Of a stretch of 24,000 bases of DNA, positions 413 through 23,117 are shown piece after piece. Numbering within the stretch: position 1 is the first letter of the stretch; each line of letters opens with the position of its first letter. The notes below the pieces were generated by a model. It was not told the origin of the DNA, did not search any database, and worked only from the letters and a program-made list of their open reading frames with translations. Position numbers and translations under genes: made by a program. The stretch comes from Alphaproteobacteria bacterium (lineage in GTDB: Bacteria > Pseudomonadota > Alphaproteobacteria > DSM-16000 > Inquilinaceae), in assembly GCA_028281925.1 (NCBI GenBank), contig JANQIX010000110.1, positions 46,271 through 70,270 of the forward strand. The letters are read 5' to 3'.

Positions 413-542
413 GGCCGCAGCCTACACCCCAGCGGACGCCGGCGGGGCACCGCAATGCAAAAGCCCGGTCGGACCGGTTCAAAAAGCCGTATCCCGGCCC
501 TATAGTGCGCGGCCTTTTGCCCCGCAAACGTTCGAAGCGCCC

Positions 543-2060: not shown

Positions 2061-2074
2061 CACCGCGGGTGGCG

Positions 2075-3620: not shown

Positions 3621-3772
3621 GGGCTCCTCCATCGGCGCGGAAACGAAGACGCTTGTCAAAATGGAAGCATAGACCCTCGCCGCCGCAGAGCGCCAGCAAA
3701 AGCGGTGCTGCGGCGGTCGTGGCAGATCGTCCGTTCCGCCGGATGAAACGCAGGTGGCGTCGCCTGACGAAG

Positions 3773-4405: not shown

Positions 4406-4470
4406 GGGAACATCGTCTCATACATAAGGCCGCGGCGTCCCTGCCAAAATGCGGCCGCCAAGTCCCGCGA

Positions 4471-5436: not shown

Positions 5437-5517
5437 CGGCCCTGGTTGCTCCGGCGTTTCGGATGGGATGGTCAGCGAACCTGCGGCCGCGTGCTTAGCG
5501 AGCGGCTCAGGGAGTCG

Positions 5518-6672: not shown

Positions 6673-6744
6673 CTCGCCATGATCGATGGAAGCGACAGCT
6701 GGGCCGGTCGTCATTGAGTCTATGTCGGCGAGAAGGAGGGAAGG

Positions 6745-8043: not shown

Positions 8044-8134
8044 GGAGGGGTGGCCGAGCGGTTGAAGGCGCACGCCTGGAAAGTGTGTATACGTTAATCG
8101 CGTATCGTGGGTTCGAATCCCATCCCCTCCGCCA
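8044..8134 (+). tRNA. tRNA-Ser (anticodon GGA), class II with long variable arm, CCA encoded
   Basis: Acceptor stem GGAGGGG/CCCCTCC, discriminator G and encoded CCA (8132-8134). Anticodon stem CACGC/GTGTG with loop CTGGAAA, giving anticodon GGA. Long variable arm ATACG-TTAATCG-CGTAT. T arm GTGGG-TTCGAAT-CCCAT. Confidence 0.93.
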
Positions 8135-8712: not shown

Positions 8713-10113
8713 ATGCGCCGTCTGATCCTTCCCGCTCTGCTCTCATCGGCAGTTGCAATACCGCTTCCGAACACAGCGTGGGCGACGAGTGCGGACGAGA
8801 TCAGACGCCTCGAACAGCAGTTGCTGGAGCAGCGCGAGTTGCTCGAAGCCCAAAGGGCAGTTATTGAGGCCCAACAGGAGCAGCTTGATAGCCAGTTGCG
8901 CCAGCTGCAAGACCTGCAGACCAGCCTCTCAGCTGAGCCTCTGTCGGACGACGAGCTCGGCGAGGCTCGCGGCGGAGTGGGCCAGATGGTCTCGGCTCCG
9001 CTCATCTTGAGTTTTCCGTCGCTGGATGGTCAGAGTTTCCAGCCGTCGACGATCACGGCCAGCGTCTTCCCGGCTGCGTTCCCGGAGACCGTGACGGCCG
9101 ACCAGCTGCTGAGCCAGCAGACACCAGGGCAAGCACCGACGACGGAACCAGGCGGCCAAGGCACACCTCCTGGGGACGTCGACTCGGAAGACACCCCGCC
9201 AAGCGTGGAGCTGTTCCCCGAACGCGGCGGCGCACTTCTGCCACAGGGAACTTTAGTGTTTGAGCCTTCTGTTGAATACAACCTTTCGAATGTTAACCGA
9301 GTCGAGGTCGCGGGCTTCAGTGTCCTGCCTGCGATTCTTGTCGGTGAGTTCGCGGTGGAGTCGGTGGAGCGCGAAAACATTACCCCCGCCGTCTCTCTGC
9401 GCTACGGCATCACTGACCGTCTGGATGCCCAGGTTCGTATCCCCTACGTGTTTCGCAGCGAAGACTCCAGCCGACGACCAATTGGCGTCGGCGCTGATGA
9501 GGCCGAGCAGTTCAACACCACCGGCAACGGGCTCGGCGATATTGAGTTCGCGACCAACTATCAGATCAATCGAGGATTGGACGATTGGCCCTTCTTCATT
9601 GCCAATCTTCGCGTGCGCGTGCCAACCGGGCGGGACCCGTTCGAGATTGAGCGGGACGAAGACGGAAATGAATTGGAGCTCGCAACCGGCACAGGGTTTT
9701 TTGGTATACAGCCGAGCTTCACGGTGCTCTATCCGAATGATCCGGCCGTGTTATTCGCGAACCTCGGTTACACCTGGAACTTGGAGCGGGATGTCGGCGA
9801 CGAGTTCGGAGTCATCGATCCCGGCGATATTGTCAACCTCAGCGGTGGCGTCGGCATCGGGCTGAACGAACGCACATCCATTACCCTTGGCTATGATCAC
9901 CAGGTCGTGGGACGCACGAGCCAGGATGGCCAGATCGTCGATGGATCGCGGGTCCTCAACATCGGGCGGCTTCTGTTCGGCGCCTCGTTTCGCGTTTCTG
10001 ACAGTGTCGGCGTCAATCTGACGGTCGCCCCCGGCGTGACTGAAGACGCGCCCGACCTGACCGCGACCTTGCGCGTGCCGATCACCTTCCAAGATCTTTT
10101 CGGAAGCGATTAG
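8713..10113 (+). CDS. Outer-membrane beta-barrel protein with an N-terminal coiled coil (FapF-like architecture)
   Basis: 466 aa. Signal peptide MRRLILPALLSSAVAIPLPNTAWA|TS. Heptad-like coiled coil at about aa 27-72 (EIRRLEQQLLEQRELLEAQRAVIEAQQEQLDSQLRQLQDLQ). LSDDELGEARGG at aa 77-88. A P/T/Q/G-rich linker runs to about aa 175, followed by ~290 aa of alternating-polarity beta-strand sequence (e.g. VSLRYGITDRLDAQVRIPYVF, GLGDIEFATNYQI, FFIANLRVRVPTG, SITLGYDHQV, LTATLRVPITF). Confidence 0.8.
   Translation: MRRLILPALLSSAVAIPLPNTAWATSADEIRRLEQQLLEQRELLEAQRAVIEAQQEQLDSQLRQLQDLQTSLSAEPLSDDELGEARGGVGQMVSAPLILSFPSLDGQSFQPSTITASVFPAAFPETVTADQLLSQQTPGQAPTTEPGGQGTPPGDVDSEDTPPSVELFPERGGALLPQGTLVFEPSVEYNLSNVNRVEVAGFSVLPAILVGEFAVESVERENITPAVSLRYGITDRLDAQVRIPYVFRSEDSSRRPIGVGADEAEQFNTTGNGLGDIEFATNYQINRGLDDWPFFIANLRVRVPTGRDPFEIERDEDGNELELATGTGFFGIQPSFTVLYPNDPAVLFANLGYTWNLERDVGDEFGVIDPGDIVNLSGGVGIGLNERTSITLGYDHQVVGRTSQDGQIVDGSRVLNIGRLLFGASFRVSDSVGVNLTVAPGVTEDAPDLTATLRVPITFQDLFGSD
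8941..8976 (+). other. Double-glycine (C39-type) processing motif LSDDELGEARGG inside the barrel protein
   Basis: The codons CTG TCG GAC GAC GAG CTC GGC GAG GCT CGC GGC GGA were read directly. The block fits LSxxELxxIxGG at positions -12, -11, -8, -7, -2 and -1. Confidence 0.55.
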
Positions 10114-10401
10114 GCATCAACCACGCAACCGCGGGTGATCGATTGTTCTTTTGGGGGACTAGAGGCGCATCCTCAGGCTACAGGCAACCGATGTGCCTAC
10201 AAGCCTTGAACACGTCAGATGGATTAGGCCAGGTTTGATTAAGCCAGGGACCGATCAAGCCGCTGGGAAGCGAACGATACTTCCGCTCCGGCTGGCACCA
10301 CATTCCTTCAGGCGCATGCCTGTTTAGGCCGAACGACTTCGCACCACGACTTCGCACCGTGCTGACAACTCGGCGATTCCCTCCCAACGTGAACCTGCTC
10401 T

Positions 10402-10926
10402 TCAGCGGTCCCTGACTCTGGGCAGGGACAGAACCTCAGTGGTGTCGGCTGTCGTCGATGCGGATCGCGCGGGCCTCTCCGCCAAGACGACTCGGTGATT
10501 ACCATCGCGCCAGTGGTCATCGAAGCCACTCGCCGGGGACATTGCCTCGAGTGCCGTGATCGGCGCGCCGAGTGGCAACACGGCATGCTCCGGGATCACC
10601 TCTCTGCCGGAGGCTGTCGCCACCGCCACTCCCTGATATCCGGCCGCCGCGCCTGACCCGGCAGCGGTTGCAATGACGGCATCGTCCTCATTTTCGATGC
10701 AGATATCACCCCAAGTCACCGCCCGCCACATCGCGCAGTCTTCATCGGCGACGGCGGAGAGCGCGTGGTCCATGATCATCTTGTCTGTGGCGACCAGCAC
10801 GGCCCCATCGATCGCATAGCCGGCAACAATCATGGGCAATGGCAGGGCACAGGCTGTGAGGGCCGCCGCCCCGAAGACAGCGGTGGCGGCAGGCAGATAG
10901 GGTCGTCTCTTCACTTGGGCCTCCAT
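10402..10926 (-). CDS. Hypothetical lipoprotein (last gene of the repeat-protein operon)
   Basis: Part of ORF 10402..11004; the start is taken at ATG 10926 (MEAQVKRRPYLPAATAVFGAAALTAC|ALPLP). A lipobox-like L-T-A-C follows a hydrophobic h-region. No family recognised. Same strand as the 182-aa gene, 67 bp downstream of it. Confidence 0.55.
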   Translation of the reverse strand: MEAQVKRRPYLPAATAVFGAAALTACALPLPMIVAGYAIDGAVLVATDKMIMDHALSAVADEDCAMWRAVTWGDICIENEDDAVIATAAGSGAAAGYQGVAVATASGREVIPEHAVLPLGAPITALEAMSPASGFDDHWRDGNHRVVLAERPARSASTTADTTEVLSLPRVRDR

Positions 10927-10993
10927 GTTCCTGGAGGTCCGACGATGCTCTGCCGGCCTCCAGTTTGTTATCGTGATGCCATGTGAGTTGCCA

Positions 10994-11542
10994 TCACAGG
11001 CCAAGTAAGCCGGCTTCGATCAGTGCGTTGGCGAGGTTGTTTGCTTGGATGCTCGACATGTCGAGATCGAGCGTCAACTCGATGCCGGTGTTCTGCTGTA
11101 TGATGATGTTGTCGAGATTGTTTTGGATAACGGAGAACAAGCCGGACCCGGCGATATCGCCAAGCATGTTGCTGTCGGGGGTGCCCCCCTGCAGGCTGAC
11201 GATGATGCTGCTGTTGGTTTGCTCGATTGCGGTGGTCACCTGACTGCCGAGGACATTGTTCACCTCCGGATCCCCGACCAGCACCCCATTCTCCAGAACC
11301 GCCTGGAAAGTGAAGCTGCTGAGCTCGCTGCCGTCCGCGCCGGCAACCAACCCGGTCATGTCGATCCCGAAGCTCACGAAACCGGCGCTGGTCAGGAAGC
11401 CACCGCGCAGATCCGCCAGCTCTTCGTTCGAGAGCCGCCGCTGCGACCACAAATCGTCTTCGGCCATCGCCGGAGCCAGCTCTGCCAGCAACGGCGTTGC
11501 CATGACCCAGAGCGCTAACGCCAAAGTGCTTTTGCCACGCAT
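10994..11542 (-). CDS. Secreted accessory protein with a GG-leader motif and degenerate IQNN-type repeats
   Basis: ORF 10994..11551 starts on a GTG. The ATG at 11542 has GGGAGG 10 nt upstream. Signal peptide MRGKSTLALALWVMATPLLAELAPAMA|ED, then LSNEELADLRGG. The C-terminal half has AIEQTNSSIIVSLQGG and FSVIQNNLDNIIIQQNT (nt 11087-11137). Confidence 0.7.
   Translation of the reverse strand: MRGKSTLALALWVMATPLLAELAPAMAEDDLWSQRRLSNEELADLRGGFLTSAGFVSFGIDMTGLVAGADGSELSSFTFQAVLENGVLVGDPEVNNVLGSQVTTAIEQTNSSIIVSLQGGTPDSNMLGDIAGSGLFSVIQNNLDNIIIQQNTGIELTLDLDMSSIQANNLANALIEAGLLGL
11399..11434 (-). other. Double-glycine processing motif LSNEELADLRGG
   Basis: The reverse complement reads CTC TCG AAC GAA GAG CTG GCG GAT CTG CGC GGT GGC. 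This fits the LSxxELxxIxGG consensus, including Leu at -4. Confidence 0.55.
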
Positions 11543-11560
11543 GGCTTCCACGCCTCCCGG

Positions 11561-12283
11561 TTAGAATGTGAATTCGTTCAATCCCGGCATCAGCAGCGTT
11601 ATGTCCGACAGGTTCTGTACGGTCAGCGCCGAGCCCAGCGGGGCCAGAGCGCGAATGCGCCAATCTGCTGCCACGTTGAACCGCTGCTGCCCGCTCTCCA
11701 TTGCATTCGTCACGACGAAGAGGATGCCGTTCCACATTGCCTCAAACTGATCTCTTGGGATGATCTTCATGCCGAAGGCCGGATCACCCACCAGGACCTC
11801 GTTTTCGGTCACGCCCTTGATCACCACAAAGTGCAAGTAGCCGTTCAGGTTTATCAGCGTGACCCCGGGGATGCCAACTTCGACCAACTGATCCAGCGAC
11901 GCCTCGAACCCATCGGACTCGAGCCCGATCGTTGCAAGGTAGGTCTTCATGTCGAGCATGGAAAAGCCGCGGGTCCGGATGGCTTCCTGATCGCCGTTCT
12001 CCCACATGTGCTCGAACACGGCCTGCTCGGTCGTCGGAACGCCGTAATGGTAGGTGAGCAAGGTTGCGACCGAGGCCGAGCCGCAGCTGAAGTCGTACTG
12101 CTGCGGCACGACGGCGTTGTACCGCGCCTCTCGGATACTGGTGACCGTCGTGTTGAACGAGAAACCGCCGACGATCGTGGTGACGTCGGCGGCGGTCGCC
12201 TTGTGCGGTCCGGCCGCCGCGGCAACGAGGGCGACGGCGGCCAGCCTGCACAGCCCCAGCCTTGTCTTTGACAGTGTGATCAT
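11561..12283 (-). CDS. Stand-alone C39-family cysteine peptidase with a Sec signal peptide (predicted periplasmic, FapD-like)
   Basis: 240 aa. Signal peptide MITLSKTRLGLCRLAAVALVAAAAGPHKATA|AD. C39 signature VVPQQYDFSCGSASVATLLTYHYG has Gln 6 residues before Cys67 (codon 12083-12085). LHFVVIKGVTENEVLVGDPAFG contains His151 and Asp167, 16 residues apart. Its ATG overlaps the TGA of the upstream 115-aa gene (ATGA). Confidence 0.88.
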   Translation of the reverse strand: MITLSKTRLGLCRLAAVALVAAAAGPHKATAADVTTIVGGFSFNTTVTSIREARYNAVVPQQYDFSCGSASVATLLTYHYGVPTTEQAVFEHMWENGDQEAIRTRGFSMLDMKTYLATIGLESDGFEASLDQLVEVGIPGVTLINLNGYLHFVVIKGVTENEVLVGDPAFGMKIIPRDQFEAMWNGILFVVTNAMESGQQRFNVAADWRIRALAPLGSALTVQNLSDITLLMPGLNEFTF

Positions 12284-12627
12284 TGCACGATAACGCTCAG
12301 CATTGTGTTCACCTGGATGATCGAGTTGTTGCCGTTGTTCTGGATCACCGTGAACGCGCCGGCCGCATTCTGAAACGCATCTGCGGCGATGGAATTGCTG
12401 GCATTGAACGGGCCCGTGATGTTTGAGGTCACGTTGCTGATCTCCGCCGACAGTGCGGCAAAGTCGGCATCGAGACCTTGCAGCGAGCCGCCGCGTGCCT
12501 CCGCCAGTTCTTCCGTAGAGATCGGGTTCCCGCCAAGAAGCCGGCTGACCTCTTCTTGGGCCTTAGCCGTATGTCCCGTGCCTGCGATGGCTAACGCCGC
12601 GACACAGAGAATTATACCCTTGGTCAT
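12280..12627 (-). CDS. Small secreted protein: signal peptide + GG-leader motif + a single QNNG-family repeat (candidate nucleator/cap)
   Basis: Part of ORF 12280..12648. The ATG at 12627 is preferred, with GGGAGG 5 nt upstream (complement of 12633-12638). Signal peptide MTKGIILCVAALAIAGTGHTAKA|QE, then ISTEELAEARGG. The mature ~68 aa end in DAFQNAAGAFTVIQNNGNNSIIQVNTMLSVIVQ. Confidence 0.75.
   Translation of the reverse strand: MTKGIILCVAALAIAGTGHTAKAQEEVSRLLGGNPISTEELAEARGGSLQGLDADFAALSAEISNVTSNITGPFNASNSIAADAFQNAAGAFTVIQNNGNNSIIQVNTMLSVIVQ
12487..12522 (-). other. Double-glycine processing motif ISTEELAEARGG
   Basis: Codons were checked one by one on the reverse strand (ATC TCT ACG GAA GAA CTG GCG GAG GCA CGC GGC GGC). 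Confidence 0.55.
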
Positions 12628-12668
12628 CAAAGCCTCCCGAAACAGCATACTTAACCGAAGAGCGTGAA

Positions 12669-12696
12669 CCGGGGGTCGCTGTCACTCGACCCCCGG
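12669..12696 (-). terminator. GC-rich 10-bp-stem hairpin between the giant gene and the downstream accessory genes (possible attenuator or mRNA-stabilising stem-loop)
   Basis: CCGGGGGTCG (12669-12678), loop CTGTCACT, CGACCCCCGG (12687-12696). It lies 37 nt downstream of the giant gene's TAA (12733-12735). On the minus-strand transcript no clean U-tract follows (TTCACGCTCTTCGG), so it is not a canonical intrinsic terminator. Confidence 0.35.
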
Positions 12697-12732
12697 CCCC
12701 GTTTTGGCTCCCTACAGAGCCTCCCGTTACTC

Positions 12733-15700
12733 TTACGGCCGCGTGAAGCTTGCCGTAACCGAGATGGACGAGCTGATCACGTTGCCCGAACCGTTGTTCT
12801 GGGTGACCGACACAACCCCAGCCGCTCCGTTGAACGAGTCGGTGATCGTGTTGTTGAGCCCAGTGGAGCCGGCCGGGATGACCGTATCGACCGTGACGTT
12901 GGAGGTCGCACCGGCCAGTGTCGCGGTCGACACCGCAGTGCCAAACCCGACGTCACCGCTCGGCGCACCGCCAGAGCCCACCTGCTCCGCACCGACGCTG
13001 ACCGCCGTTCCCAGCACATTGGCATCGCCGTTGTTCTGGGTCACGGTCGCCACGCCCTGGAAGCTCTCGAACGAGTCGCTGATCGTGTTGTCGGGGCCGA
13101 CAGCACCCAGCTGCTGATAGATCTCGATCGGAGCCCCAGGCGCCCCAACGGTACCGGTCACGTCAGACGAAACCGTGCTGGAACCTGCCACGTCCGCGTT
13201 GTCACCCAGCGTGGCCGATACGCCGATGGCCGTTGTCGCCACATTGCCGTTCCCGTTGTTCTGGAACACGGCGAAGATCCCCTCGGCACCATCGAACGAG
13301 GCGTCGATGAAGTTCGACCGATTGCCGAAGAACTGCCGGTCACCCGGCGCACCGAACACCAGACCGCTCACATCGCCGCCGGCCTCGACCACCGAGGCGA
13401 CCGTGTCGATATCGTCTGCATCGACCAGGGCCACCACGCCAATCGAAGTGCCGATGACGTTGCCGGTACCGTTGTTCTGCTGAACCGAGACCACACCGCT
13501 CGCGCCGTCGAAGGAGTCGGCGACGATGTCGTTGTCTCGGAGGTTGCTCTCCAAGATCGCGCCATCGTCAACCTCGCTGACCGTGCCGAAGGCGCGGATC
13601 AACGATTGCGTGGAGCTCTCTGCGGCAGGAGTGGCGCCAGCCTGGCCCGTGCGAACGTCGGCCGACACGGCGATGGCGGAGAACATGGCGTTACCGTCGC
13701 CATTGTTCTGCTGGACCGTCAGCGTGCCGGTATACGAGTCGAACGAGTCAGTGATCGTATTCAACCGCGGGCTTTCCGTATCGACGAAGGTGATGATGTC
13801 TTCGATGTCCACGGACATGTCGACCGACTGGGTGACGTTGTTCGCGGTCGCACCGGGCCCGCTGCCGAACACCGCGGTACCGGAGAAGATGAAGTTTCCG
13901 CCACCGTTGTTCTGCTGAGCCGTGACGATGCCCGAAGCGTCGTCGAACGCCCCACCGACGAGGAGGTTGGTACGAGCCCCGTCCGGCGTGGCGGCGGACC
14001 CGAACGTGAGCCCCGACAGCGTCGGCGGGACACCGTCCAGGCTGATCGTCTGATCAACCGTCAACGTCTCTTCGTCGTCCGCATCGCCGACCAACGCCGT
14101 TGCCGCCGCCAGAACGTTGCCGTCACCATTGTTCTGCTGAATGGTGGCGACACCTGAGTACCCGACGAATGCCGAGGTCAGGTCGTTCAGACGCAGGCTG
14201 TTGTCGGAGAGCACCGTGAGATCGCTGACCTGGTTCGTACCGGACGCGGCATCGATCGTCTGGTCGACGTTCTCCGGGCCGTTACCCACATAGGCCAGCA
14301 CCGCCACGTCTTCGATCATCACGTTGGCGTCGCCGTTGTTCTGCTGAACATCGACCACACCCGCGAAGCCGTCAAACGCGCCCGGTTCGACCCTATTGGT
14401 GCGCACGTCATCGGCTGCCGACACGAGCGCGAACGAGACCACTGTTTCAACGAATGTGATCTCTTGGGCCGCGTCACTGAGGAACCCGGTCGATCCCACA
14501 ATGGCGTTGTTGGCCGTCATCACGTTCACATCGCCGTTGTTCTGCTGAACCGTGGCAATGCCGCCGGTGCCCGGGCCCGTGAAGGCGCCGCCACCGATGG
14601 TGTTCGTCCGCGTTCCGCCAGCGCTGATCAGGTTCAGATCGAAGGTCAGGTTCCCGGCGACCGTTCCGGCCGACCCGATGGTCTGGGTCACCGTGCCAGT
14701 CGGGCCGAGCAGCAGGCCATCAGCCGACCCCAGCACCGCATTGTTGATCTGCATGGCGTTGAGGTTGCCGTTGTTCTGCTGAACATTGGCGATCCCCGCC
14801 GAGCCGGAGAAGGCCGTGCCGCCCACCAGGTTGGTGCGTGTCTCACCGCTAATCAGGATGTCGATATCGGCATCCAGCGTCGCGATGATATCCGCATCCG
14901 ACGTGATCGTCTGATCGACCGGCAGCCCCGCCGCCTGCAGCAGGACACCACCAGCCAAGCCGACCACGGCGCTGTTCGCCCCAATCGCGTTCAGGTTGCC
15001 GTTGTTCTGCTGAACCGTGGCAATCCCGTTCGAGCCGGAGAAGGCACCGCCGTCGATCGTGTTGGTCGCAACCTCTGTTCCCAGCGTCAGGAACTCGAGA
15101 TCCACTGTCGCATCCAACAGGTGCAGCGTGTCGGACGACACGACCTGATCGACTTCACCGACCGCACTGAGGGCGAACCCGGCCGCGCCGAGCACCGCGG
15201 TGTTGGCGGTGATCGAGTTCAGGTCACCATTGTTCTGCTGAACCGTGGCGACGCCGTCCGAGCCCGAGAACGCGCTGCCAGTGATCGTGTTGGTATCCGT
15301 ATCACCGAGCAGCAAGGAGATATCGATCCCCGCCTCGAACACGTGGGCAGCGCTGGAGCTCACGCTCTGATCCACGCTTCCCGCGCCGATGGCGGCAAGA
15401 CCTGACACACCGACGATCGCATTGTTGATCGTCATGGCATTGATGTTGCCGTTGTTCTGCTGAGCATTCACGACACCGGCGGACCCTGCGAAGGCCATGC
15501 TGTCGATCAGGTTCTCCCGATCGCCGCCGGACAAGATGTTGATGTCGAACGCCGCGTTGAGCGCCAGCAAGTCGGCCGAGGTGATGCTCTGGACCACCGT
15601 TCCCGTCGCGTTGAACGAAAGCCCAACTGCACCGACAACCGCGTTGTTGATGGCGAGTGCATTGATGTCGCCGTTGTTCTGCTGAACGCTGGTCAGACCC

Positions 15701-18700
15701 GCTGCACCTTCAAACGCTTCGTCGCTGATCAGGTTGTCGCGGCTGCTGTCCGCGATGCCCAGATCGATGGCCAAGTCGAGTGCCAGTGTGGCTTCCGACG
15801 TGACCGTCTGCGTGATGCTATCGGTCAGCCTGAAGTCGAAGCCACCGACCCCGATGATCGCATTGTTGATACCGAGACCGTTCACGTTGCCGTTGTTCTG
15901 CTGAACGCTGGTCACGCCTTCGACACCCTCGAACGCGTCGTCGGTGATCGTGTTGGCACGCGCACCAAGGACATTGAGGTCGGCATCGAGAGCCAGGTTG
16001 AAGATGATGTCGGTGCTGGAGCCGGCCACCTGCGTGACGTCGCCGAACGGCCCCAGTTGGGCTCCGCCGGCCACGCCGACGACCGCACTGTTGATGTCCA
16101 GCGCGTTCACGTCGCCGTTGTTCTGCTGCACGCTGGTCATGCCGGAGATGCCGTTGAACGACCCCGCGTCGATCGTATTCGTGCGGAAGCCGAGGATGTC
16201 GATCGCACCGTTGGCGGTGAGGTCGACTTCCGACATGGCCGTCTGGGTCACATCCGCGCCGATCGCCAGCGCCCCGTCGGTCAGGCCGACCACGGCGTTG
16301 TTGATGCCGAGCGAATTGACGTTGCCATTGTTCTGCTGCGCGGCGATCAGGCCCGACGTCGCGAGGAACGCCGCATCCGTGATCGAATTCGTCCGTGCGC
16401 CGCCCAGGACGTCAGCATCTACCACGAAGCTGCCATCGATGCTGACGGTCGACGTGGCCTCTTGATCCACGAAACCGACTGCACTGAGCGAGAACCCGGC
16501 CACACCCACGACGGCGTTGTTGATGCCCATCGCATTGATGTCGCCGTTATTCTGCTGGGCGCTGACGATGCCGCTCGCGAAGGCGAACGCCCCCGCATCG
16601 ATATCGTTGTCCCGCACGCCGCCGAAGAACAGGGTGACATCTGCGGCCGTGTTGTCCAGCAGGCTGACATCAGACGTGGCGTCCTGGAACACGAAGCCGG
16701 TCGCGCTGAGCGCGATGCCTGTGGTCCCGGAAACCGCATTGTTGATGCTGAGCGCATTCACATCGCCGTTGTTCTGTTGAACGCTCAGCAGACCGGCTGC
16801 AGCGACGTTGGCGATGTCGCTGATGTCGTTGGTGCGCGCACCACCACCGAAGATGCCCAGATCGATGGCCGTGTTGCTGTCCAGCTCTACGAGCGAGCTG
16901 GCCGACTGGACGATAGCGAAGGTCGCGCTCGCCGACAGCCCAACCGTTCCCATCACTGCGTTGTTGATGTTCAGCGCATTGATGTTGCCGTTGTTCTGCT
17001 GGGCATTGATGACGCCAGCCGCCGTCGCGAAGGCAGCGCCATCGATCGTGTTGTCCCGGTCACCGCCGCCCAGGGCGCTGACGTCAAGCGCGCCACCCAG
17101 GGTCAGGTCCGTGTCGGAACTCGCCGTCTGGAACGCCACGCCAGTCAGGCTGGCAGAGGCGCCGACACCGCCGATCACCGCATTGTTGGCGCTGATGGCA
17201 TTCAGGTCGCCATTGTTCTGCTGAACATTGACAACTCCAGCGAAGCCAGCGAAGGCGCCGTCCGTCAGTGTGTTCGTGCGGTCACCGCCAAACACGCTGC
17301 CGTCCACGGCCAGCGTGAAGACAGTGTCAACTGACGAGGTGGCGTCCTGATCCACAAGGCCATTGGCCGTGAGGGTCAGGCCGTTGGCGCCGACGACCGC
17401 ATTGTTAACGTCCATCGAGTTCAGGTTGCCGTTGTTCTGCTGAACGCTGGCGATCCCGCTGCCGCCTGCGAAGGCAGCGTCGTCGATGGTGTTGGTCCGC
17501 GTACCCTGGATGTCGATCGCAGCCGCGATGGCGTTGACGACAGTCGAGGATGCATCTTGCGTGATGAAGCCGAGCTGAGCCAGAGCGCCGGCCGACACGC
17601 CAACCACCGCATTGTTGGTGCTGATGGCATTCAGGTCGCCGTTGTTCTGCTGAACGTTGACGATGCCGTTTGCGCCGGTGAAGGCAAGGTCGGTGAGGGT
17701 ATTCGTCCGATCACCGCCCAGGATCTCCAGATCCACCGCCACGTTGAAGGCGAGCCCGCTGTCTGAGTCGGCAGTCTGGATCACCGGACCACTGGCGCTG
17801 GCGCCGAAGCCCGCAACGCCAACGACGGCACTGTTCACGCCCATGACGTTCACGTTGCCGTTGTTCTGCTGGACAGTGGTGATCCCGTTGGCCACCAGGA
17901 AGGCGCCAGCGTTGACCACGTTCGCGCGATCACCACCCCCGATCTGCACATCCAATGCTGCATCGAACAGCAAGAAGGCATCCGATTCGGCCACCTGCGT
18001 AACGATGCCCGTTCCCGTCAGGCCGAGGCCCGCTGTTCCGAACACCGCTGTGTTGGCAGAGATCGAGTTCAGATCGCCGTTGTTCTGCTGAACATTGACG
18101 ATGCCGTCCGACGCGATCGAGGCGATGCCCGTGATCGTGTTCAGGCGATCGCCACCACCCAGCAGCCCGACATCGATTGCCGTGTCGCCCAGGAGCGTTG
18201 CCGTGGAGGTCGCCGACTGATCCAACGTCCCGGAGAGGCTTACGCCGGCGCCGGACGCACCGACGATGGCGTTGTTGATGCCCATGGCGTTCAGGTCGCC
18301 GTTGTTCTGCTGAACGTTGACGACACCATCCACCAGCGCAAAGGCAGCACCACCGACTACGTTGCTGCGTGCGCTGCCGCCGAGGAAGTCGAAGTCGACG
18401 GTCGTGCTGAGAGCGATATCCTGATCCGAGCCGGCGGTCTGCGTCGTCGCCCCAGCAGCACTGATCGAGATACCCACGGCACCCATAACCGCGTTATTGA
18501 TGCCGAGTGCGTTCAGGTCGCCGTTGTTCTGCTGAACGTTGGCGATACCGTCGAAGACCGAGAACGCTGTACCGGTGATCACATTGTCTCGGCCACCGCC
18601 GCCTAGGAGATCCAGGTTCAGCGTCGCACCCAGGGCCAGATCGACATCGGAAGTCGCGCTCTGGTCGACGGTCGAATTCAGGCCCAGGTTGATCCCGATC

Positions 18701-21700
18701 GCGCCGACCACGGCGGAGTTGGCGTCGATCGAGTTCAGATCACCGTTGTTCTGCTGCACGCTTGCGAGGCCGGCTGCTCCGGAGAAGGCCGATCCGCTGA
18801 TGGAATTGTCGCGGGCGCCGAACCCAAGAGCATCGACATCGATCCCCGCATTCAAAGCGGCATCGACGGTCGAGCTAGCGGACTGATCGATAGCGCCGAG
18901 CACAGCCACGTTGATACCGCCGCTGGAGCCAACGACGGCATTGTTGATGTCCATGCTGTTGAGGCTGCCGTTGTTCTGCTGGATAGCCGCGATGCCGTTG
19001 GCACCGGCAAACGCCGCACCGTCGATCGTGTTCTCCCGATCGCCGCCCAGATCGATAGCCAAGTTGATCAGGAAGTCGACGTCGGAAGCCGCCACCTGGC
19101 TTATGCCACCGATCGCACCCGTGAGGCTTGGCGCCGTGGCCCCGAGCACCGCGTTGTTGATCTGCAGCGCATTCAGGTCGCCGTTGTTCTGCTGGATGTT
19201 CGCGATACCTGCGGCGCCGGTGAAGGCACCCGTGATCGTGTTGCTGCGGTCACTCAGCAGGTCAAGCGTCGCGTTGACGGTCAAGAGAGCGGTCGAAGTG
19301 GCCGACTGCACGACCGGCACACCTGACAGCACGATGGCCGGGCCGATCGAGCCCACCACGCCGTTGTTGGTCTCAAGCGTGTTCAGCGTGCCGTTGTTCT
19401 GCTCGATATTGGCGATGCCCGTGGCACCAGCGAACCCACCGGGAATCGTGTTGGTGCGCGAACCGAACAGATCGGCCGTGGCGCCGAAGGCCACGATCGC
19501 CGGGCTGTTCACATCCTGCGTGACGCTGGTCGCGACACCAAGCGCACCGACCACGGCGTTGTTGATCTGCAGCGAGTTGAGGTCACCATTGTTCTGCTGA
19601 ACGTTGATGATCCCGCTCGCGCCATCAAACGCACCGGCGGCGATCGTGTTCGTCCGCGTCGTGGCAATGCCGATCTCCAGATTGCCAGCCAGCGTCGTCA
19701 GCTCAATCGTCGAACTCGGGGTCTGCGTGATCGCACCGGTCGCACCGGTCACGCCCACCACCGCGCTGTTGATGTCCATCGCATTCAGGCTGCCATTGTT
19801 CTGTTGAACGCTGGCCACGCCCGTGAAGCCGTCGAAGACGGGATCGGCGATGAAGTTGTCGCGGGTACCCGCGATGTCGACGGCCAAGTTGCCCAGGATC
19901 GACACGGTCGTGCCGACGTCCTGATCGATGGCACCGGTGGAGCTAGCCACACCGACGATCGCAGTGCCGATTGAGACAATGTTGGCGTCACCGTTGTTCT
20001 GCTGGACGTTCGCCACGCCCGCGGCCCCATTGAAGCCGTCTTCCAGCAGGTTGGACCGGACGTCGCTCGGGTCGACCGCGACCGAGCTCAGGATATCCGC
20101 CGTCTTGACGATGTCCTGATCGATGGCGCCAGTCGCGCCGACGATGCCGACAATGGCATTGCCGATGACGATGGCATTACCGCTGCCATTGTTCTGCTGA
20201 ACGTTGAGAACGCCGGTCGCACCGTTGAAGGACCCACCGGCCAGGCCGATGTTGTTGTCCAGCGTGGAGGAACCGACGCGGATCACCTCAACATCGTCGA
20301 CTTCGGCATCCAGCGTGACGGCCTGCGTGATGCTGCCGGAACCGCCGAGGCCCGCGCCGAGAGCGGCCGCATCGCCGGCGATCGCGCTGGCGACCTGGAT
20401 GGCATTCGCATGGCCGTTGTTCTGCTGAACGGTGACCACGCCGGCGGCATCGGTGAACGCTTGGTCGATGTCGTTGCTGCGGTCGGCGCCGCTGCCCGAA
20501 ACATCGATGTCGACGATGAAGCCATCGAGCGTGGCGAAGGCATTCGTGGTCTGCGAGATCGCCCCGCCCACTGACGCCGTCGCACCGATGACCGCATTGG
20601 CCACGTCCATCGCGTTGGCGTGACCGTTGTTCTGCTGCACGGTCAGAACACCCGACGCGTCGCGGAACGACCGTTCGATCAGGTTGATTGCCGTCGGGAA
20701 GCCGATATCGTCAACATCGGTGCTGCCCAGAACGGTGGAGAAACTGCCAGCCGTCTGATCGATAGACCCGATCGTGCCGCCAGGTGACGCCAGCCCCAGA
20801 ACCGCATTGGCGTTGGAGATGGCATTGCCATCGCCGTTGTTCTGCTGGGCCGTAAGGACACCGCTGAAGCGGTCAGCGGAGTTGATGGTCAGGTTCCGAT
20901 AGTCGGTTGCATTGGAATCCGCGCTGGTCAGGAGGATCGTCGAAGCCGACGTCGCGTCCTGTGTGACCGCGCCGTCCACGCCGCCGGTGATACCCGCAAT
21001 GGCGTTGGCGATCCCCATCGCATTGCCATCGCCGTTATTCTGCTGGACAGCCGCGAGACCGACTGCGTCGTCGAACGCCCGGCGGATCACATTGTTTCGA
21101 TCCAGCGCAAACGCAAAGCTGCCGGGCTGCGTGTTGGTCGTGTTCAGGGCTATGGTGCCGCCGGTCAGGGCCGACTGCGTAACGGCGTCCGTGTCTTCCG
21201 GCGAACCCAGAAGGACGGCCGTCCCGCCGACGAGACCGGTAACTGCATTGGCAATGCCCATGGCGTTGCCGCTGCCGTTGTTCTGCTGAACCGCCATGAT
21301 GCCGGCGGTGGAATCGAAGGAGTCGCGGATCCTGTTCCGGCGATCGGTACCTTGATCAACCGTGTCAACGAGGACCGAAAGGCCGACGGTCGAAGCGGTG
21401 TTGGTGATGGCGCCGACATCCGCGATGGCTGCAACGATGCCGTGCGCTGCCGTTGCAACGCCCATCGCATTGATGTCGCCATTGTTCTGCTGCACATGGA
21501 TGATGCCGGCAGCGCCATTGTAGGAGCTGTCTTGGACGAAGTTCTGCCGCTCCCGCGTGGCGTCGGAGCCGTCGCCGATTGCGGTCGCACTGCCAAAGGC
21601 GACGATATCGGTGACCGCAGCCACGGTCTCGATGTCAGCGCCGTCGGGTGCCAGGTCGCCATTCACCGCGATGGCGCTACCGAGCACGTTCCCGTCGCCA

Positions 21701-21924
21701 TTGTTCTGCTGGCTGACCAGGACACCTTCCGCACCCAGCGTGAACGAATTGAGGATCGTGTTGAGCTCACCGCCCGATCCGCCCGCAGACTGATCATCCA
21801 CGACGACACCGGAGGCGGAAGACGCCGTGACAGAGGCACTCGCCAAACTCTGCGCCTGTGCAGCGGCGCCGAAGCCGATCGTCAGAGCCAGGAGGGACAC
21901 GCCCCCTAAAAGAGTATTCCTCAT
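12733..21924 (-). CDS. Giant (3,063 aa) Sec-exported repeat protein with 42 QNNG-core repeats; candidate fibre/adhesin or functional-amyloid-like subunit
   Basis: One uninterrupted 9.2-kb ORF. ATG at 21922-21924 with GGGAGAGG upstream. Signal peptide [24 protein letters not shown]|QS. I counted 42 occurrences of the core x(V/I/A)(Q/T/E/F)QNNGxxN, each inside a ~65-77-aa unit such as (D/T)R(T/D)N(T/x)Ixxx(A)Fxg(A/x)xG(I/V)xxVQQNNG(D/N)xNAxxINNAVVGxxG...(T/D)Q...D. The composition is dominated by A/G/N/V/S/T/D/I/L/Q, and I saw no Cys or Trp on reading. The protein ends right after a repeat (...GVVSVTQNNGSGNVISSSISVTASFTRP). Confidence 0.9.
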   Translation of the reverse strand: MRNTLLGGVSLLALTIGFGAAAQAQSLASASVTASSASGVVVDDQSAGGSGGELNTILNSFTLGAEGVLVSQQNNGDGNVLGSAIAVNGDLAPDGADIETVAAVTDIVAFGSATAIGDGSDATRERQNFVQDSSYNGAAGIIHVQQNNGDINAMGVATAAHGIVAAIADVGAITNTASTVGLSVLVDTVDQGTDRRNRIRDSFDSTAGIMAVQQNNGSGNAMGIANAVTGLVGGTAVLLGSPEDTDAVTQSALTGGTIALNTTNTQPGSFAFALDRNNVIRRAFDDAVGLAAVQQNNGDGNAMGIANAIAGITGGVDGAVTQDATSASTILLTSADSNATDYRNLTINSADRFSGVLTAQQNNGDGNAISNANAVLGLASPGGTIGSIDQTAGSFSTVLGSTDVDDIGFPTAINLIERSFRDASGVLTVQQNNGHANAMDVANAVIGATASVGGAISQTTNAFATLDGFIVDIDVSGSGADRSNDIDQAFTDAAGVVTVQQNNGHANAIQVASAIAGDAAALGAGLGGSGSITQAVTLDAEVDDVEVIRVGSSTLDNNIGLAGGSFNGATGVLNVQQNNGSGNAIVIGNAIVGIVGATGAIDQDIVKTADILSSVAVDPSDVRSNLLEDGFNGAAGVANVQQNNGDANIVSIGTAIVGVASSTGAIDQDVGTTVSILGNLAVDIAGTRDNFIADPVFDGFTGVASVQQNNGSLNAMDINSAVVGVTGATGAITQTPSSTIELTTLAGNLEIGIATTRTNTIAAGAFDGASGIINVQQNNGDLNSLQINNAVVGALGVATSVTQDVNSPAIVAFGATADLFGSRTNTIPGGFAGATGIANIEQNNGTLNTLETNNGVVGSIGPAIVLSGVPVVQSATSTALLTVNATLDLLSDRSNTITGAFTGAAGIANIQQNNGDLNALQINNAVLGATAPSLTGAIGGISQVAASDVDFLINLAIDLGGDRENTIDGAAFAGANGIAAIQQNNGSLNSMDINNAVVGSSGGINVAVLGAIDQSASSTVDAALNAGIDVDALGFGARDNSISGSAFSGAAGLASVQQNNGDLNSIDANSAVVGAIGINLGLNSTVDQSATSDVDLALGATLNLDLLGGGGRDNVITGTAFSVFDGIANVQQNNGDLNALGINNAVMGAVGISISAAGATTQTAGSDQDIALSTTVDFDFLGGSARSNVVGGAAFALVDGVVNVQQNNGDLNAMGINNAIVGASGAGVSLSGTLDQSATSTATLLGDTAIDVGLLGGGDRLNTITGIASIASDGIVNVQQNNGDLNSISANTAVFGTAGLGLTGTGIVTQVAESDAFLLFDAALDVQIGGGDRANVVNAGAFLVANGITTVQQNNGNVNVMGVNSAVVGVAGFGASASGPVIQTADSDSGLAFNVAVDLEILGGDRTNTLTDLAFTGANGIVNVQQNNGDLNAISTNNAVVGVSAGALAQLGFITQDASSTVVNAIAAAIDIQGTRTNTIDDAAFAGGSGIASVQQNNGNLNSMDVNNAVVGANGLTLTANGLVDQDATSSVDTVFTLAVDGSVFGGDRTNTLTDGAFAGFAGVVNVQQNNGDLNAISANNAVIGGVGASASLTGVAFQTASSDTDLTLGGALDVSALGGGDRDNTIDGAAFATAAGVINAQQNNGNINALNINNAVMGTVGLSASATFAIVQSASSLVELDSNTAIDLGIFGGGARTNDISDIANVAAAGLLSVQQNNGDVNALSINNAVSGTTGIALSATGFVFQDATSDVSLLDNTAADVTLFFGGVRDNDIDAGAFAFASGIVSAQQNNGDINAMGINNAVVGVAGFSLSAVGFVDQEATSTVSIDGSFVVDADVLGGARTNSITDAAFLATSGLIAAQQNNGNVNSLGINNAVVGLTDGALAIGADVTQTAMSEVDLTANGAIDILGFRTNTIDAGSFNGISGMTSVQQNNGDVNALDINSAVVGVAGGAQLGPFGDVTQVAGSSTDIIFNLALDADLNVLGARANTITDDAFEGVEGVTSVQQNNGNVNGLGINNAIIGVGGFDFRLTDSITQTVTSEATLALDLAIDLGIADSSRDNLISDEAFEGAAGLTSVQQNNGDINALAINNAVVGAVGLSFNATGTVVQSITSADLLALNAAFDINILSGGDRENLIDSMAFAGSAGVVNAQQNNGNINAMTINNAIVGVSGLAAIGAGSVDQSVSSSAAHVFEAGIDISLLLGDTDTNTITGSAFSGSDGVATVQQNNGDLNSITANTAVLGAAGFALSAVGEVDQVVSSDTLHLLDATVDLEFLTLGTEVATNTIDGGAFSGSNGIATVQQNNGNLNAIGANSAVVGLAGGVLLQAAGLPVDQTITSDADIIATLDADIDILISGETRTNLVGGTAFSGSAGIANVQQNNGNLNAMQINNAVLGSADGLLLGPTGTVTQTIGSAGTVAGNLTFDLNLISAGGTRTNTIGGGAFTGPGTGGIATVQQNNGDVNVMTANNAIVGSTGFLSDAAQEITFVETVVSFALVSAADDVRTNRVEPGAFDGFAGVVDVQQNNGDANVMIEDVAVLAYVGNGPENVDQTIDAASGTNQVSDLTVLSDNSLRLNDLTSAFVGYSGVATIQQNNGDGNVLAAATALVGDADDEETLTVDQTISLDGVPPTLSGLTFGSAATPDGARTNLLVGGAFDDASGIVTAQQNNGGGNFIFSGTAVFGSGPGATANNVTQSVDMSVDIEDIITFVDTESPRLNTITDSFDSYTGTLTVQQNNGDGNAMFSAIAVSADVRTGQAGATPAAESSTQSLIRAFGTVSEVDDGAILESNLRDNDIVADSFDGASGVVSVQQNNGTGNVIGTSIGVVALVDADDIDTVASVVEAGGDVSGLVFGAPGDRQFFGNRSNFIDASFDGAEGIFAVFQNNGNGNVATTAIGVSATLGDNADVAGSSTVSSDVTGTVGAPGAPIEIYQQLGAVGPDNTISDSFESFQGVATVTQNNGDANVLGTAVSVGAEQVGSGGAPSGDVGFGTAVSTATLAGATSNVTVDTVIPAGSTGLNNTITDSFNGAAGVVSVTQNNGSGNVISSSISVTASFTRP
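12775..21715 (-). repeat. Array of 42 diverged tandem coding repeats, period about 195-240 bp
   Basis: On the + strand the 12-mer (G/A)TTGTTCTGCTG (the reverse complement of Q-Q-N-N codons) recurs at, for example, 13471, 13702, 13906, 14128, 14335, 14536, 14770, 15001 ... 21276, 21481 and ~21701. The flanking sequence is diverged, so these are imperfect repeats rather than recent identical copies. Confidence 0.9.
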
Positions 21925-22161
21925 TTAGCCTCTCCCGTTTCGCGTTGGCCGTCTGCCGACGGGGTTTACACTTCGGTTTCCGCTCGATCTGAGCGCGCTC
22001 ACCCCTGAATCGCTCGGAAACCGGGGCCGCACCGGCGGCCCCCTTCGGGCATCCCGATGCACTTGCGCTCTGAACTAGCAAGTCGCATGCCAGAACGGGC
22101 TACACGCTTTAGGAGATTGATATTGTTGGGAAATTGCGCTCAAGAACCGAGGAGATCGGCC

Positions 22162-22178
22162 GTTAACTCTTTGTTAAC
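22162..22178. promoter_or_regulatory. CtrA-type box 1 (GTTAACTCTTTGTTAAC = TTAA-N7-TTAAC, matching on both strands)
   Basis: Read directly: TTAA + CTCTTTG + TTAAC. Lies 238-254 bp upstream of the giant gene's ATG, in a locally AT-rich intergenic region. Confidence 0.5.
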
Positions 22179-22257
22179 CTGTTCACATTTGCGAGGACAG
22201 CGAATCGATCGGCTGGCTCGGTGAGCGGAAAACCAAGGGATTCCAACGGGGCAATTA

Positions 22258-22274
22258 GTTAACAAAGTGTTAAC
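22258..22274. promoter_or_regulatory. CtrA-type box 2 (GTTAACAAAGTGTTAAC)
   Basis: TTAA + CAAAGTG + TTAAC, also matching on the opposite strand. Forms a 16/17-nt inverted repeat with box 3, separated by 13 bp. Confidence 0.5.
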
Positions 22275-22287
22275 GGCACCGGTAGGC

Positions 22288-22304
22288 GTTAACACTTTGT
22301 TAAT
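22288..22304. promoter_or_regulatory. CtrA-type box 3 (GTTAACACTTTGTTAAT; perfect TTAA-N7-TTAAC on the minus strand)
   Basis: The reverse complement is ATTAACAAAGTGTTAAC, i.e. TTAA + CAAAGTG + TTAAC. Confidence 0.5.
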
Positions 22305-22511
22305 AAGTAGGAGTCCTATCTAAGTGCCGAGTCTAAATGCCGAGAGGAGCAATCGCGCCTGCCCGGGCAGACCGCATGGCAGGAGAGGATCTCGCCTTGC
22401 ATATCGAGGAGATTCAGAAATCCGTTGATCGGCTTGTCGGCTGATGGCACCCACCGATCGCCGGCAACTGAAGGGCGCCGCCTGTGCCGACGACGCCCTT
22501 CGTGGTCTTCC

Positions 22512-23117
22512 TCAGCTTTGCGGAACCAGCAAGGCGACCAAGGTTGTCAGATCGGGCAACCCGGTTGCCTCGAGCTCGTTCTGCTCTTGAAATTCCGAAA
22601 TGGCGGCTTGCGTTCCCGGGCCGAACACGCCGTCAGCCTCGCCGTCATAGAGCTCAAGCTCGGCCAGTCTCTCTTGGGCGCGGCGCAACAGCTCAACGGG
22701 CAGGCTTACGCTCTCTTCTCCGGAAACGACGTCCACTCGCTCGGACTGTTCGGCCAGCGCCAATGGACGAAGCAGCGAAGCCGTGGCGGTCACGGCCTCG
22801 CCAAAGCGCGCCTGGGGCGTTCGATCGCAGATATTGGCGACTATGGCCGTCAGGGCGTCGATGTTGTGCACGGGGCTGATGTCGTAGACGCCCTCCGTCA
22901 GCAGGTTCACCGCCGAGAAGTGGCCATTAATCCAAGACCGGAACGCCAGCACCAAGGGATCGCTGTCCTCCAGCGCCTGCGTGAAGGTCTCGCAAGTCTC
23001 AAACCCCTCTCCCTTGATGACGTAGTTTCCGTCTGTGTCCGCGGCTTCGACGGTAGGTACAGAGATCGCCGCAGTGCCGAGGAGAGCGGCCAACAGAGCT
23101 GAGCCGTAGTGACGCAT
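22512..23117 (-). CDS. Secreted protein with a C-terminal peptidoglycan-binding (PG_binding_1-like) domain
   Basis: Part of ORF 22512..23441. The start is taken at ATG 23117 (MRHYGSALLAALLGTAAISVPTVEA|AD), preceded by a perfect AAGGAGG (complement of 23123-23129). The C-terminus, RAQERLAELELYDGEADGVFGPGTQAAISEFQEQNELEATGLPDLTTLVALL, matches the LxxLGxYxGxxDGxFGxxTxxAVxxFQ pattern. The N-domain is unassigned. Confidence 0.72.
   Translation of the reverse strand: MRHYGSALLAALLGTAAISVPTVEAADTDGNYVIKGEGFETCETFTQALEDSDPLVLAFRSWINGHFSAVNLLTEGVYDISPVHNIDALTAIVANICDRTPQARFGEAVTATASLLRPLALAEQSERVDVVSGEESVSLPVELLRRAQERLAELELYDGEADGVFGPGTQAAISEFQEQNELEATGLPDLTTLVALLVPQS

Follow-up and report, generated by a model that had tools for sequence, protein, structure and literature searches.

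The closest described relative of the locus considered here is the Fap system of Pseudomonas (fapABCDEF), whose Sec-exported components include a periplasmic C39 peptidase (FapD), a coiled-coil-plus-barrel protein (FapF), a protein with processed N-terminus (FapE) and subunits built from an imperfect, amyloid-forming repeat (FapB, FapC). The locus itself (positions 8713–23117) belongs to an alphaproteobacterium of the Inquilinaceae and was analysed within a stretch of 24,000 nucleotides (assembly GCA_028281925.1, contig JANQIX010000110.1, positions 46,271–70,270), referred to as the window. It shares with Pseudomonas Fap the export of its components via Sec, a FapD-type peptidase, a FapF-type barrel, a FapE-like protein, the order D-E(-F) and the imperfect repeat, and probably constitutes a divergent Fap-type system for export and assembly of a surface fibre. 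Its products include a giant protein of 3063 amino acids (aa) with 42 repeats.

Three repeats are present in 94 % of FapC proteins, 4–16 being the reported maximum (PMC12392863, PMC3792158), and reviews describe three repeats as nearly universal and Fap as restricted to Beta-, Gamma- and Deltaproteobacteria (PMC3792158, PMC12392863, PMC12822426). In Pseudomonas, secretion depends on the catalytic cysteine of FapD, FapE undergoes N-terminal processing and is found in vivo without its first ~70 residues, and a cut in the linker of FapF is suspected; FapD's target is said to be still unclear, and the Pseudomonas Fap proteins are devoid of canonical C39 motifs (PMC5557850, PMC6173800, PMC12822426). 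Loss of fapA is common even in canonical operons (PMC3792158), and colocalised fapD/fapF pairs outside Fap have been noted before (PMC6173800).

Homology of the core components

The peptidase gene (11561–12283, minus strand, 240 aa) is assigned by its family matches and catalytic residues to a periplasmic stand-alone C39 cysteine peptidase homologous to FapD (NCBIfam, E = 7.1e-47). The score against Pfam Peptidase_C39 (68 bits) exceeds the cut-off of 22, the protein can be aligned with C39 domains from bacteriocin exporters (PCAT) in the Protein Data Bank (PDB), and residues Q61, C67, H151 and D167 are invariant in 34 relatives. The family is very large, comprising more than 4000 matches and loci in at least 587 species-level genomes.

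The barrel gene (8713–10113, plus strand, 466 aa) is convergent to the other genes of the locus and codes for a protein composed of a signal peptide, a coiled coil (aa ~26–75), a linker, a plug and a beta-barrel (aa 157–459). By its matches it is clearly a homologue, and not an equivalog, of FapF (NCBIfam, E = 2.1e-40): residues 157–459 align over the whole FapF barrel construct (PDB 5o65, E = 2.7e-26), and residues 25–81 match coiled-coil families only (Pfam, NCBIfam). No POTRA domain was detected in the protein with Pfam. In the Acinetobacter Fil putative pilus system, a C39 peptidase (FilB) is likewise paired with a related barrel (FilC). This system is, however, more distant than Fap, since the scores of peptidase and barrel against the NCBIfam models of FilB (114.2 bits, E = 7e-33) and FilC (39.8 bits, E = 3.5e-10) stay below the respective cut-offs of 475 and 630, and no Fil subunit family is matched by the proteins of the locus; a literature search on Acinetobacter FilB/FilC returned nothing useful.

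The giant gene (12733–21924, minus strand) encodes a signal peptide followed by 42 units of ~73 aa. Each unit has the consensus xxRxNxIxxxAFxGAxGxxxVQQNNGDxNAxxxNNAVVG (also written RxNxIxxxAFxGAxGIxxVQQNNGDxNAxxINNAVVG) and a spacer of ~34 residues; the 42 QNNG cores are spaced by 65–81 residues, and the last unit forms the extreme C-terminal end. The length of 42 units is no assembly artefact, because a second assembly/strain encodes a protein of equal length (3063 aa) that aligns without gaps at 99 % identity. At the DNA level, no repeat within the gene was registered by Tandem Repeats Finder, as the units are too diverged.

As a whole, the giant protein matches no Pfam or NCBIfam family, and sequence searches of PDB with a six-unit fragment or a 40-unit profile retrieved no match even at E ≤ 10. 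The profile built from 40 of its units matched just 158 proteins among 1.84 billion (1.84e9) representatives. The giant protein tops these matches and is the longest, with 42 matched stretches compared to 19–21 in the next best. Lower among the matches range proteins of ~200–250 aa with three matched stretches, and nine out of ten of these that were tested score as FapB and/or FapC (NCBIfam, 1e-10 to 1e-31). The repeats of these FapB/C-like proteins align residue for residue with the giant unit (‘RSDIIENSFHDRAGVIGVHQAAGNLNVQRNTLVMVIG’ as compared to ‘RTNTIDDAAFAGGSGIASVQQNNGNLNSMDVNNAVVG’; hhalign probability 95.5 %, E = 1.6e-8, 35 columns). FapB was also the sole recurring, albeit weak, NCBIfam match of three-unit fragments of the giant protein (≤16.5 bits), and precomputed Pfam FapBC matches exist on several relatives. 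Due to the profile bridge, the hhalign result, the FapB fragment matches and the FapBC matches on relatives, the repeat is regarded as a diverged FapB/C module, the QQNNG unit being by these alignments a remote homologue of the FapB/C imperfect repeat to which the three-repeat proteins provide the bridge. A preceding interpretation made from the DNA sequence without database searches (the sequence-only reading) had held the repeat core to differ from that of Fap, which was not borne out.

Two small proteins complete the Fap-related set. The 115-aa one-repeat protein (12280–12627, minus strand) begins with a signal peptide and a double-glycine leader, behind which follows a mature peptide of ~68 aa that has one Fap-type repeat at its end. 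In the alignment of its family, the signal peptide is followed by LxxxRGG, ~25 residues and then TGxNxIxxGAFxNxSGxxTVIQNSGxNVLIQN, a repeat that hhalign relates to the giant unit (94.8 %, E = 4.8e-8); a word-indexed search with the 115-aa protein retrieved five near-identical proteins only. The 182-aa FapE-like protein (10994–11542, minus strand) likewise has a signal peptide and a double-glycine leader, and a single Fap-type repeat, degenerate in sequence, is located close to its C-terminus; its match to NCBIfam FapE (E = 1.1e-4, residues 11–76) is weak and limited to the N-terminal leader region.

The repeat gene and the homologues of FapD, FapE and FapF lie within one locus with gaps below 5 kb, the NCBIfam matches of FapE and the repeat being weak; a broad definition of Fap loci asks that a FapBC repeat be accompanied within 5 kb by three or more further Fap homologues (PMC12392863). 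The NCBIfam model of FapC found no match in the giant protein, which has 42 units as compared to three in canonical FapB/FapC. By these scores the locus proteins are homologues rather than members of the canonical Fap families. Of the sequence-only reading, the seven-gene layout including coordinates and strands was confirmed, as were the ATGA overlap between the 115-aa and the C39 gene, the convergent barrel gene with its N-terminal coiled coil, the count of exactly 42 QNNG cores, the single repeat of the 115-aa protein and the repeat-like stretch of the 182-aa protein. An N-terminal pattern of basic, hydrophobic and small residues, called by eye and hydropathy, is present in all seven proteins, agreeing with the proposed Sec or lipoprotein signals. 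The Fap-like interpretation itself is supported by the matches to FapF (E = 2e-40), FapD (E = 7e-47) and FapE (E = 1e-4), by repeat homology and by synteny.

Differences from Pseudomonas Fap concern several traits. The repeats number 42 instead of three and are separated by structured spacers instead of flexible linkers; FapA and a three-repeat FapB are missing; and the 115-aa subunit with its predicted cleavable leader, a peptidoglycan (PG)-binding accessory, a lipoprotein and a sigma-54 promoter are additional. Canonical double-glycine motifs occur here and none in Pseudomonas (PMC5557850), and the host is an alphaproteobacterium, whereas Fap is described as restricted to Beta-, Gamma- and Deltaproteobacteria. 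The locus, rated a candidate undescribed system by the sequence-only reading, remains undescribed within the literature searched, with the reservation that fapD/fapF pairs have been noted (PMC6173800) and that Pfam FapBC touches some relatives.

Structure prediction with AlphaFold2 for five units, using an alignment of disjoint windows plus homologues, resulted in an all-beta fold in which each unit contributes six strands and no linker is disordered, at a predicted local distance difference test (pLDDT) score of 90.5 and a predicted template modelling (pTM) score of 0.91. Foldseek found no significant match of this model in PDB, the best being the 15-repeat CsgA 8c50 (E = 4e-3); the nearest solved folds, likewise not significant, are beta-solenoids including CsgA and FapC, and adhesins and beta-helix enzymes are also among the top neighbours. 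Every protein of the locus is acidic. The giant protein contains one Lys, no Cys, no Trp and 243 Asp among its 3063 residues, with a net charge of about −237, and relatives of the locus include halophiles (Limimonas, Halomonas).

Conserved neighbourhood in related genomes

ORFs (open reading frames) were called in the 80 best of the at least 587 genome loci and searched with the window proteins. A barrel homologue was present within the DNA fetched around the C39 gene in 68/80 genomes, most exceptions being short contigs, and a 115-aa homologue directly upstream of the peptidase gene in 49/80. The order repeat protein, one-repeat protein, C39 peptidase, FapE-like protein and barrel is retained in seven loci (L002, L005, L007, L008, L013, L014, L089), and two more (L010, L020) have equal gene order with no barrel within the DNA fetched. 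Eleven related loci contain a repeat protein, which stands beside C39 in nine (10/12 with the present locus included), and seven of these nine also have a barrel within the fetched DNA. Homologues of the giant protein are thus linked to C39 and barrel partners, with no genes for type I secretion (T1SS) or two-partner secretion (TPS) in the related loci, and the barrel–C39 linkage is kept; both outcomes agree with what the sequence-only reading had expected of a Fap-like locus, the latter speaking against an uptake family. The location of the channel gene on the opposite strand, which that reading had listed as a difference from Fap, is real but not peculiar to this locus, since many of the 80 related loci have the barrel gene oriented opposite to the peptidase gene. 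In Magnetospirillum sp. UT-4 (L017, 10713–13877), the barrel-homologue ORF extends over 1054 aa in high-GC DNA and represents a fusion or an over-extended ORF. Aidingimonas halophila (L073, 9932–12493 and 16907–19865) has two C39–barrel pairs within 10 kb.

Multi-repeat QQNNG proteins are confined to the closest, alphaproteobacterial loci (Paracoccaceae, Azospirillaceae, Sneathiellales, Limimonas, Rhodospirillaceae and others), where they measure 586–1684 aa with 5–20 units and are often accompanied by genes for a PG-binding protein and a sigma-54 activator. The PG-binding gene of the present locus (22512–23117, minus strand) encodes 201 aa with a C-terminal PG_binding_1 domain (Pfam, 54.6 bits), predicted to be periplasmic. 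Homologues (E 1e-31 to 1e-48) adjoin the repeat-protein gene in L002, L005, L008, L013, L014 and L089, and the complete arrangement of PG-binding, repeat, one-repeat, C39, FapE-like and barrel genes recurs in about ten alphaproteobacterial loci; judged by this distribution, the protein is an accessory kept in the alphaproteobacterial clade. The lipoprotein gene (10402–10926, minus strand, 174 aa, lipobox LTAC) matches no Pfam or NCBIfam family and has no homologue in 86 related loci except on a contig of the same organism. It was rejected as a core component because it is absent from all related loci; specific to this locus, it is of uncertain membership in the system.

In one metagenomic genome (L088, 1–15249; L003, 10001–14596), six tandem QQNNG paralogues of ~785–808 aa and two elsewhere were observed, arrays with no C39 or barrel gene within 10 kb, which represent an alternative to a single giant gene.

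Widespread, uncharacterised FapD/FapF-linked operons of Beta- and Gammaproteobacteria and Geobacterales (L021–L087) share with the present locus a one-repeat leader protein, C39 peptidases of 44–55 % identity, a FapE-like protein, a barrel and LxxxRGG leaders. They differ in the large protein encoded upstream of the one-repeat gene, which here is the giant and there a Gly/Ser/Thr-rich protein of 290–500 aa with one repeat copy at the extreme C-terminus. Examples are found in Ralstonia (L059, 8101–9399), Variovorax (L049, 7914–9419), Halomonas (L086, 8073–9383), Methylobacter (L050, 8302–9456) and Geotalea (L025, 8547–9416). In such Gly-rich or Ser/Thr-rich secreted proteins, the last ~30 residues make up one Fap-type repeat, e.g., ...GVMVANQNSGFASLIQQSINVQANLNVGK. 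Its position suggests that the Fap-type repeat may act as a C-terminal tag.

Double-glycine leaders, promoter elements and flanking DNA

The double-glycine leaders of bacteriocins processed by C39 peptidases follow the consensus LSxxELxxIxGG. Motifs conforming to this consensus were identified at three places: ISTEELAEARGG in the 115-aa protein (12487–12522, minus strand), LSNEELADLRGG in the 182-aa protein (11399–11434, minus strand) and the leader-like LSDDELGEARGG directly behind the coiled coil, in the linker of the barrel protein (8941–8976, plus strand). LSNEELADLRGG fits the consensus at positions −12, −11, −8, −7, −4, −2 and −1; the canonical leader form is also quoted in PMC5557850. 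Over all six frames of the window, the pattern [ILVM]S..EL..[AILVM]RGG is matched exactly three times, in each case within a locus protein (summarised as [IL]SxxELxx[AL]RGG). In 1.25 million ORF residues from 87 loci it is matched seven times, each of the seven lying in a one-repeat protein, in the ORF next downstream of the peptidase gene, or in a barrel. LAEARGG is invariant in four close 115-aa homologues. In related loci, the C39 gene is immediately followed downstream by the homologue of the 182-aa protein, and 16/22 of these homologues contain ELDxxRGG(F/Y); in 28/74 loci, the strict leader motif is present in the next ORF downstream of the peptidase gene. At the linker position of LSDDELGEARGG, the related motif L(D/E)xxRG(G/A) is present in barrels of Ralstonia, Lysobacter and Woeseiaceae. 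The 115-aa and 182-aa proteins are therefore predicted C39 targets with a putative cut after GG. The giant protein was rejected as a C39 substrate because the leader motif is missing in it and in its homologues.

As in PCAT/ComA systems, C39 fold, catalytic residues and leader consensus are found together here. Unlike in these, the peptidase is free and periplasmic instead of fused to an ABC exporter, the leaders stand behind a Sec signal peptide, and one motif is internal to an outer-membrane protein.

A second RGG is located in the barrel protein at 9208–9231 (aa 166–173, ELFPERGG), at the junction just before barrel and plug, where alphaproteobacterial barrels commonly have (D/E)RGG(V/A)L. 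In the alignment, ELFPERGG falls on the beginning of the FapF crystal construct, a place at which GG/GA motifs have been pointed out in Pseudomonas (PMC5557850).

A predicted sigma-54 type −24/−12 promoter (TGGCATGCGACTTGCT, 22077–22092, minus strand) is located ~150 nt upstream of the giant gene. Copies that are perfect or have one mismatch precede the major-subunit gene in seven related loci (L005, L008, L010, L002, L003, L059, L025), and genes for sigma-54 activators flank related loci; an activator gene is absent from the window. Further upstream of the sigma-54 element, by 70–212 nt, three palindromes of the type GTTAAC-N5-GTTAAC (22162–22178, 22258–22274, 22288–22304) represent candidate activator sites. 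These three copies, as opposed to none expected from 100 shuffles, all fall into the upstream intergenic region of the giant gene. GTTAAC half-sites also occur upstream of the sigma-54 promoter in the Paracoccaceae locus L002 (6499–6525), and were not found in the other loci checked.

A tRNA-Ser(GGA) gene (8044–8134, plus strand) is situated exactly at a drop in GC content from 0.65–0.68 over the housekeeping genes (1–7600) to 0.55–0.64 across the whole Fap-like locus, and the related locus L005 is flanked by integrase and insertion sequence (IS) genes; the locus may reside on a tRNA-associated island. The flanking genes at 351–7623 code for a class II aminoacyl-tRNA synthetase (Asp/Lys/Asn type), a class IV aminotransferase, glycosyltransferases of families GT9 (heptosyltransferase-like) and GT4 and an alpha/beta hydrolase, and have no visible tie to the locus.

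Proposed function, alternative explanations and significance

Homology, synteny and motifs, on which all functional statements rest, suggest the following course of export, cleavage and stacking. Transcription would be driven by the sigma-54 promoter and the upstream activator sites, and all components would enter the periplasm via Sec. The FapF-type barrel, which carries a periplasmic coiled coil and is trimeric in Pseudomonas, would export unfolded substrates across the outer membrane. Export may be licensed by the FapD-type peptidase, cutting after Gly-Gly of the bacteriocin-like leader in the 115-aa subunit and the FapE-like protein, and possibly also in the barrel linker. Outside the cell, the Fap-type repeats would fold and stack as cross-beta layers, and sequential folding may drive export of the long chain. 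With 42 covalently linked layers, the 3063-aa protein would accordingly form a long single-chain beta-solenoid rod of ~20 nm at one layer per unit (as in FapC) or ~40 nm at two. The small leader-bearing proteins may serve as primer, anchor or cap via the common repeat, and the PG-binding protein may be a clade-specific periplasmic accessory.

Several results weigh against a Fap-type assignment. None of the locus proteins reaches the cut-off of a canonical Fap equivalog family (FapA–F): the barrel scores 138.8 bits against FapF (cut-off 700), the peptidase 159.5 bits against FapD (cut-off 330), the 182-aa protein 21.5 bits against FapE (cut-off 250), and FapB is matched with at most 16.5 bits (cut-off 190). 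The NCBIfam scan of the seven locus proteins returned no match to FapA, which the sequence-only reading had likewise not recognised in the locus. The giant protein is devoid of a double-glycine leader motif, and the barrel-linker motif occurs in only 7/74 barrel homologues. The AlphaFold2 model of the 115-aa protein, computed with five close homologues, is uninformative (pLDDT 37), FapC 9u4u ranks only seventh in the Foldseek comparison with an insignificant E-value of 0.33, and the one metagenomic genome mentioned above encodes eight repeat paralogues of ~660–810 aa, divided between two arrays that lack a C39 gene within 10 kb. Finally, a solenoid that is predicted with confidence as a monomer might be a stable adhesin instead of an amyloid that polymerises.

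This last point leads to the main rival explanation, in which the same export machinery would deliver the giant protein, and this would be a beta-helical adhesin or surface coat in monomeric form, i.e., a finished, non-polymerising and non-amyloid rod anchored by the small proteins. The continuous, confident solenoid with structured spacers, unlike the flexible linkers of FapC, the adhesins and beta-helix enzymes among the top structural neighbours, and the extreme acidity with a single lysine, as in many secreted adhesins, are in line with such a protein, and 42 covalent layers could render intermolecular stacking dispensable. The unit is, however, homologous to the amyloid-forming FapB/C repeat, and the position of the last unit at the extreme C-terminus, as in every family substrate, suggests end-to-end templating. 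Moreover, long curli subunits, with as many as 62 repeats, still assemble into fibres (PMC12822426, citing Sleutel et al.). An adhesin rod is considered unlikely.

Curli (CsgA) resemble the locus in further respects: their imperfect repeat is rich in Q/N/G and stacks into a beta-solenoid, variants with dozens of repeats exist in nature (4–62; PMC12822426), and the 15-repeat CsgA 8c50 is the top, not significant, structural neighbour. They differ by the unrelated CsgG/E/F export, by repeat length and by fold, and Curlin_rpt is not matched here. Other secretion routes were rejected because their defining parts are absent. The curli route lacks a curlin repeat and any CsgG/E/F match (Pfam, NCBIfam). 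T1SS export of an RTX-type adhesin lacks ABC and membrane fusion protein (MFP) genes or such domains in the window and the related loci, and the giant has a Sec signal. Type V secretion (T5SS; autotransporter or two-partner) is discounted since the giant protein matches no Pfam or NCBIfam family and the barrel contains no POTRA domain. Pfam and NCBIfam scans of the window ORFs tested accordingly reproduced the absence of ABC/MFP, POTRA and autotransporter domains seen in the sequence-only reading.

That the barrel is an uptake channel of the COG4313/Phenol_MetA_deg type for hydrophobic small molecules, with the peptidase processing a small peptide and the giant protein leaving by an unrelated route, is very improbable. 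The barrel does belong to this superfamily, as Pfam places it in Phenol_MetA_deg (30.8 bits, cut-off 22) and the PTG motif common to FapF and COG4313 channels (PMC6173800) is present at aa 304, and the missing leader motif of the giant protein would fit a separate route; since FapF itself sits in the superfamily, however, membership cannot separate uptake from export. The FapF score of 139 bits (E = 2e-40) is far above the generic family score of 31 bits, the coiled coil is FapF-specific, and C39 partners are not reported for COG4313 operons (PMC6173800), whereas barrel and C39 gene co-occur in the great majority of the genomes compared. Repeat proteins, in addition, adjoin C39 and mostly a barrel in the related loci, and no alternative exporter is encoded in the window.

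Least probable of all is maturation of the 115-aa protein by the C39 peptidase to a secreted bacteriocin- or signal-like peptide, with the repeat proteins as unrelated cargo or immunity factors: its canonical leader, a weak Pfam Lactococcin match over this leader (E = 0.041) and the translational coupling to the C39 gene agree with it, but cleavage would be periplasmic, unlike in PCAT systems, because a Sec signal precedes the leader, a Fap-type repeat with homology to the giant unit makes up the mature part, an ABC transporter is absent, and equal leaders are present on the FapE-like protein and in the barrel. Both the uptake and the bacteriocin explanation fit synteny and architecture poorly.

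Beyond the probable Fap-type fibre system at this locus, a more general function of FapD/FapF pairs is conceivable, if doubtful. They may represent a general pathway of secretion and assembly at the outer membrane that is very widespread (matches in at least 587 species-level genomes). In this pathway, a single C-terminal Fap-type repeat would serve as address and stacking tag for diverse cargo, the one-repeat leader proteins would be the peptidase substrates priming each export cycle, and the exporter would be switched by the linker cut. The giant protein would then be the tag amplified 42-fold to a single-chain, pre-polymerised amyloid rod.

The targets of FapD and its cleavage site have been a standing question since 2017. 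As the locus and its relatives display canonical double-glycine motifs at both sites under suspicion in Pseudomonas, i.e., FapE's N-terminus and the FapF linker, and a third in a previously unnoticed one-repeat subunit, the substrate question becomes directly testable. In view of the field's notion that FapC has ‘almost invariably’ three repeats, a stable relative with 42 repeats, together with members of its clade that have 7–21, indicates that the Fap fold may tolerate expansion similar to that of curli. As an amyloid scaffold found in nature, consisting of a single chain and having a defined length, the giant protein would be of use for structural work and biomaterials. The findings would extend Fap-type systems to the Alphaproteobacteria and tie them to a much larger set of uncharacterised C39–barrel operons.

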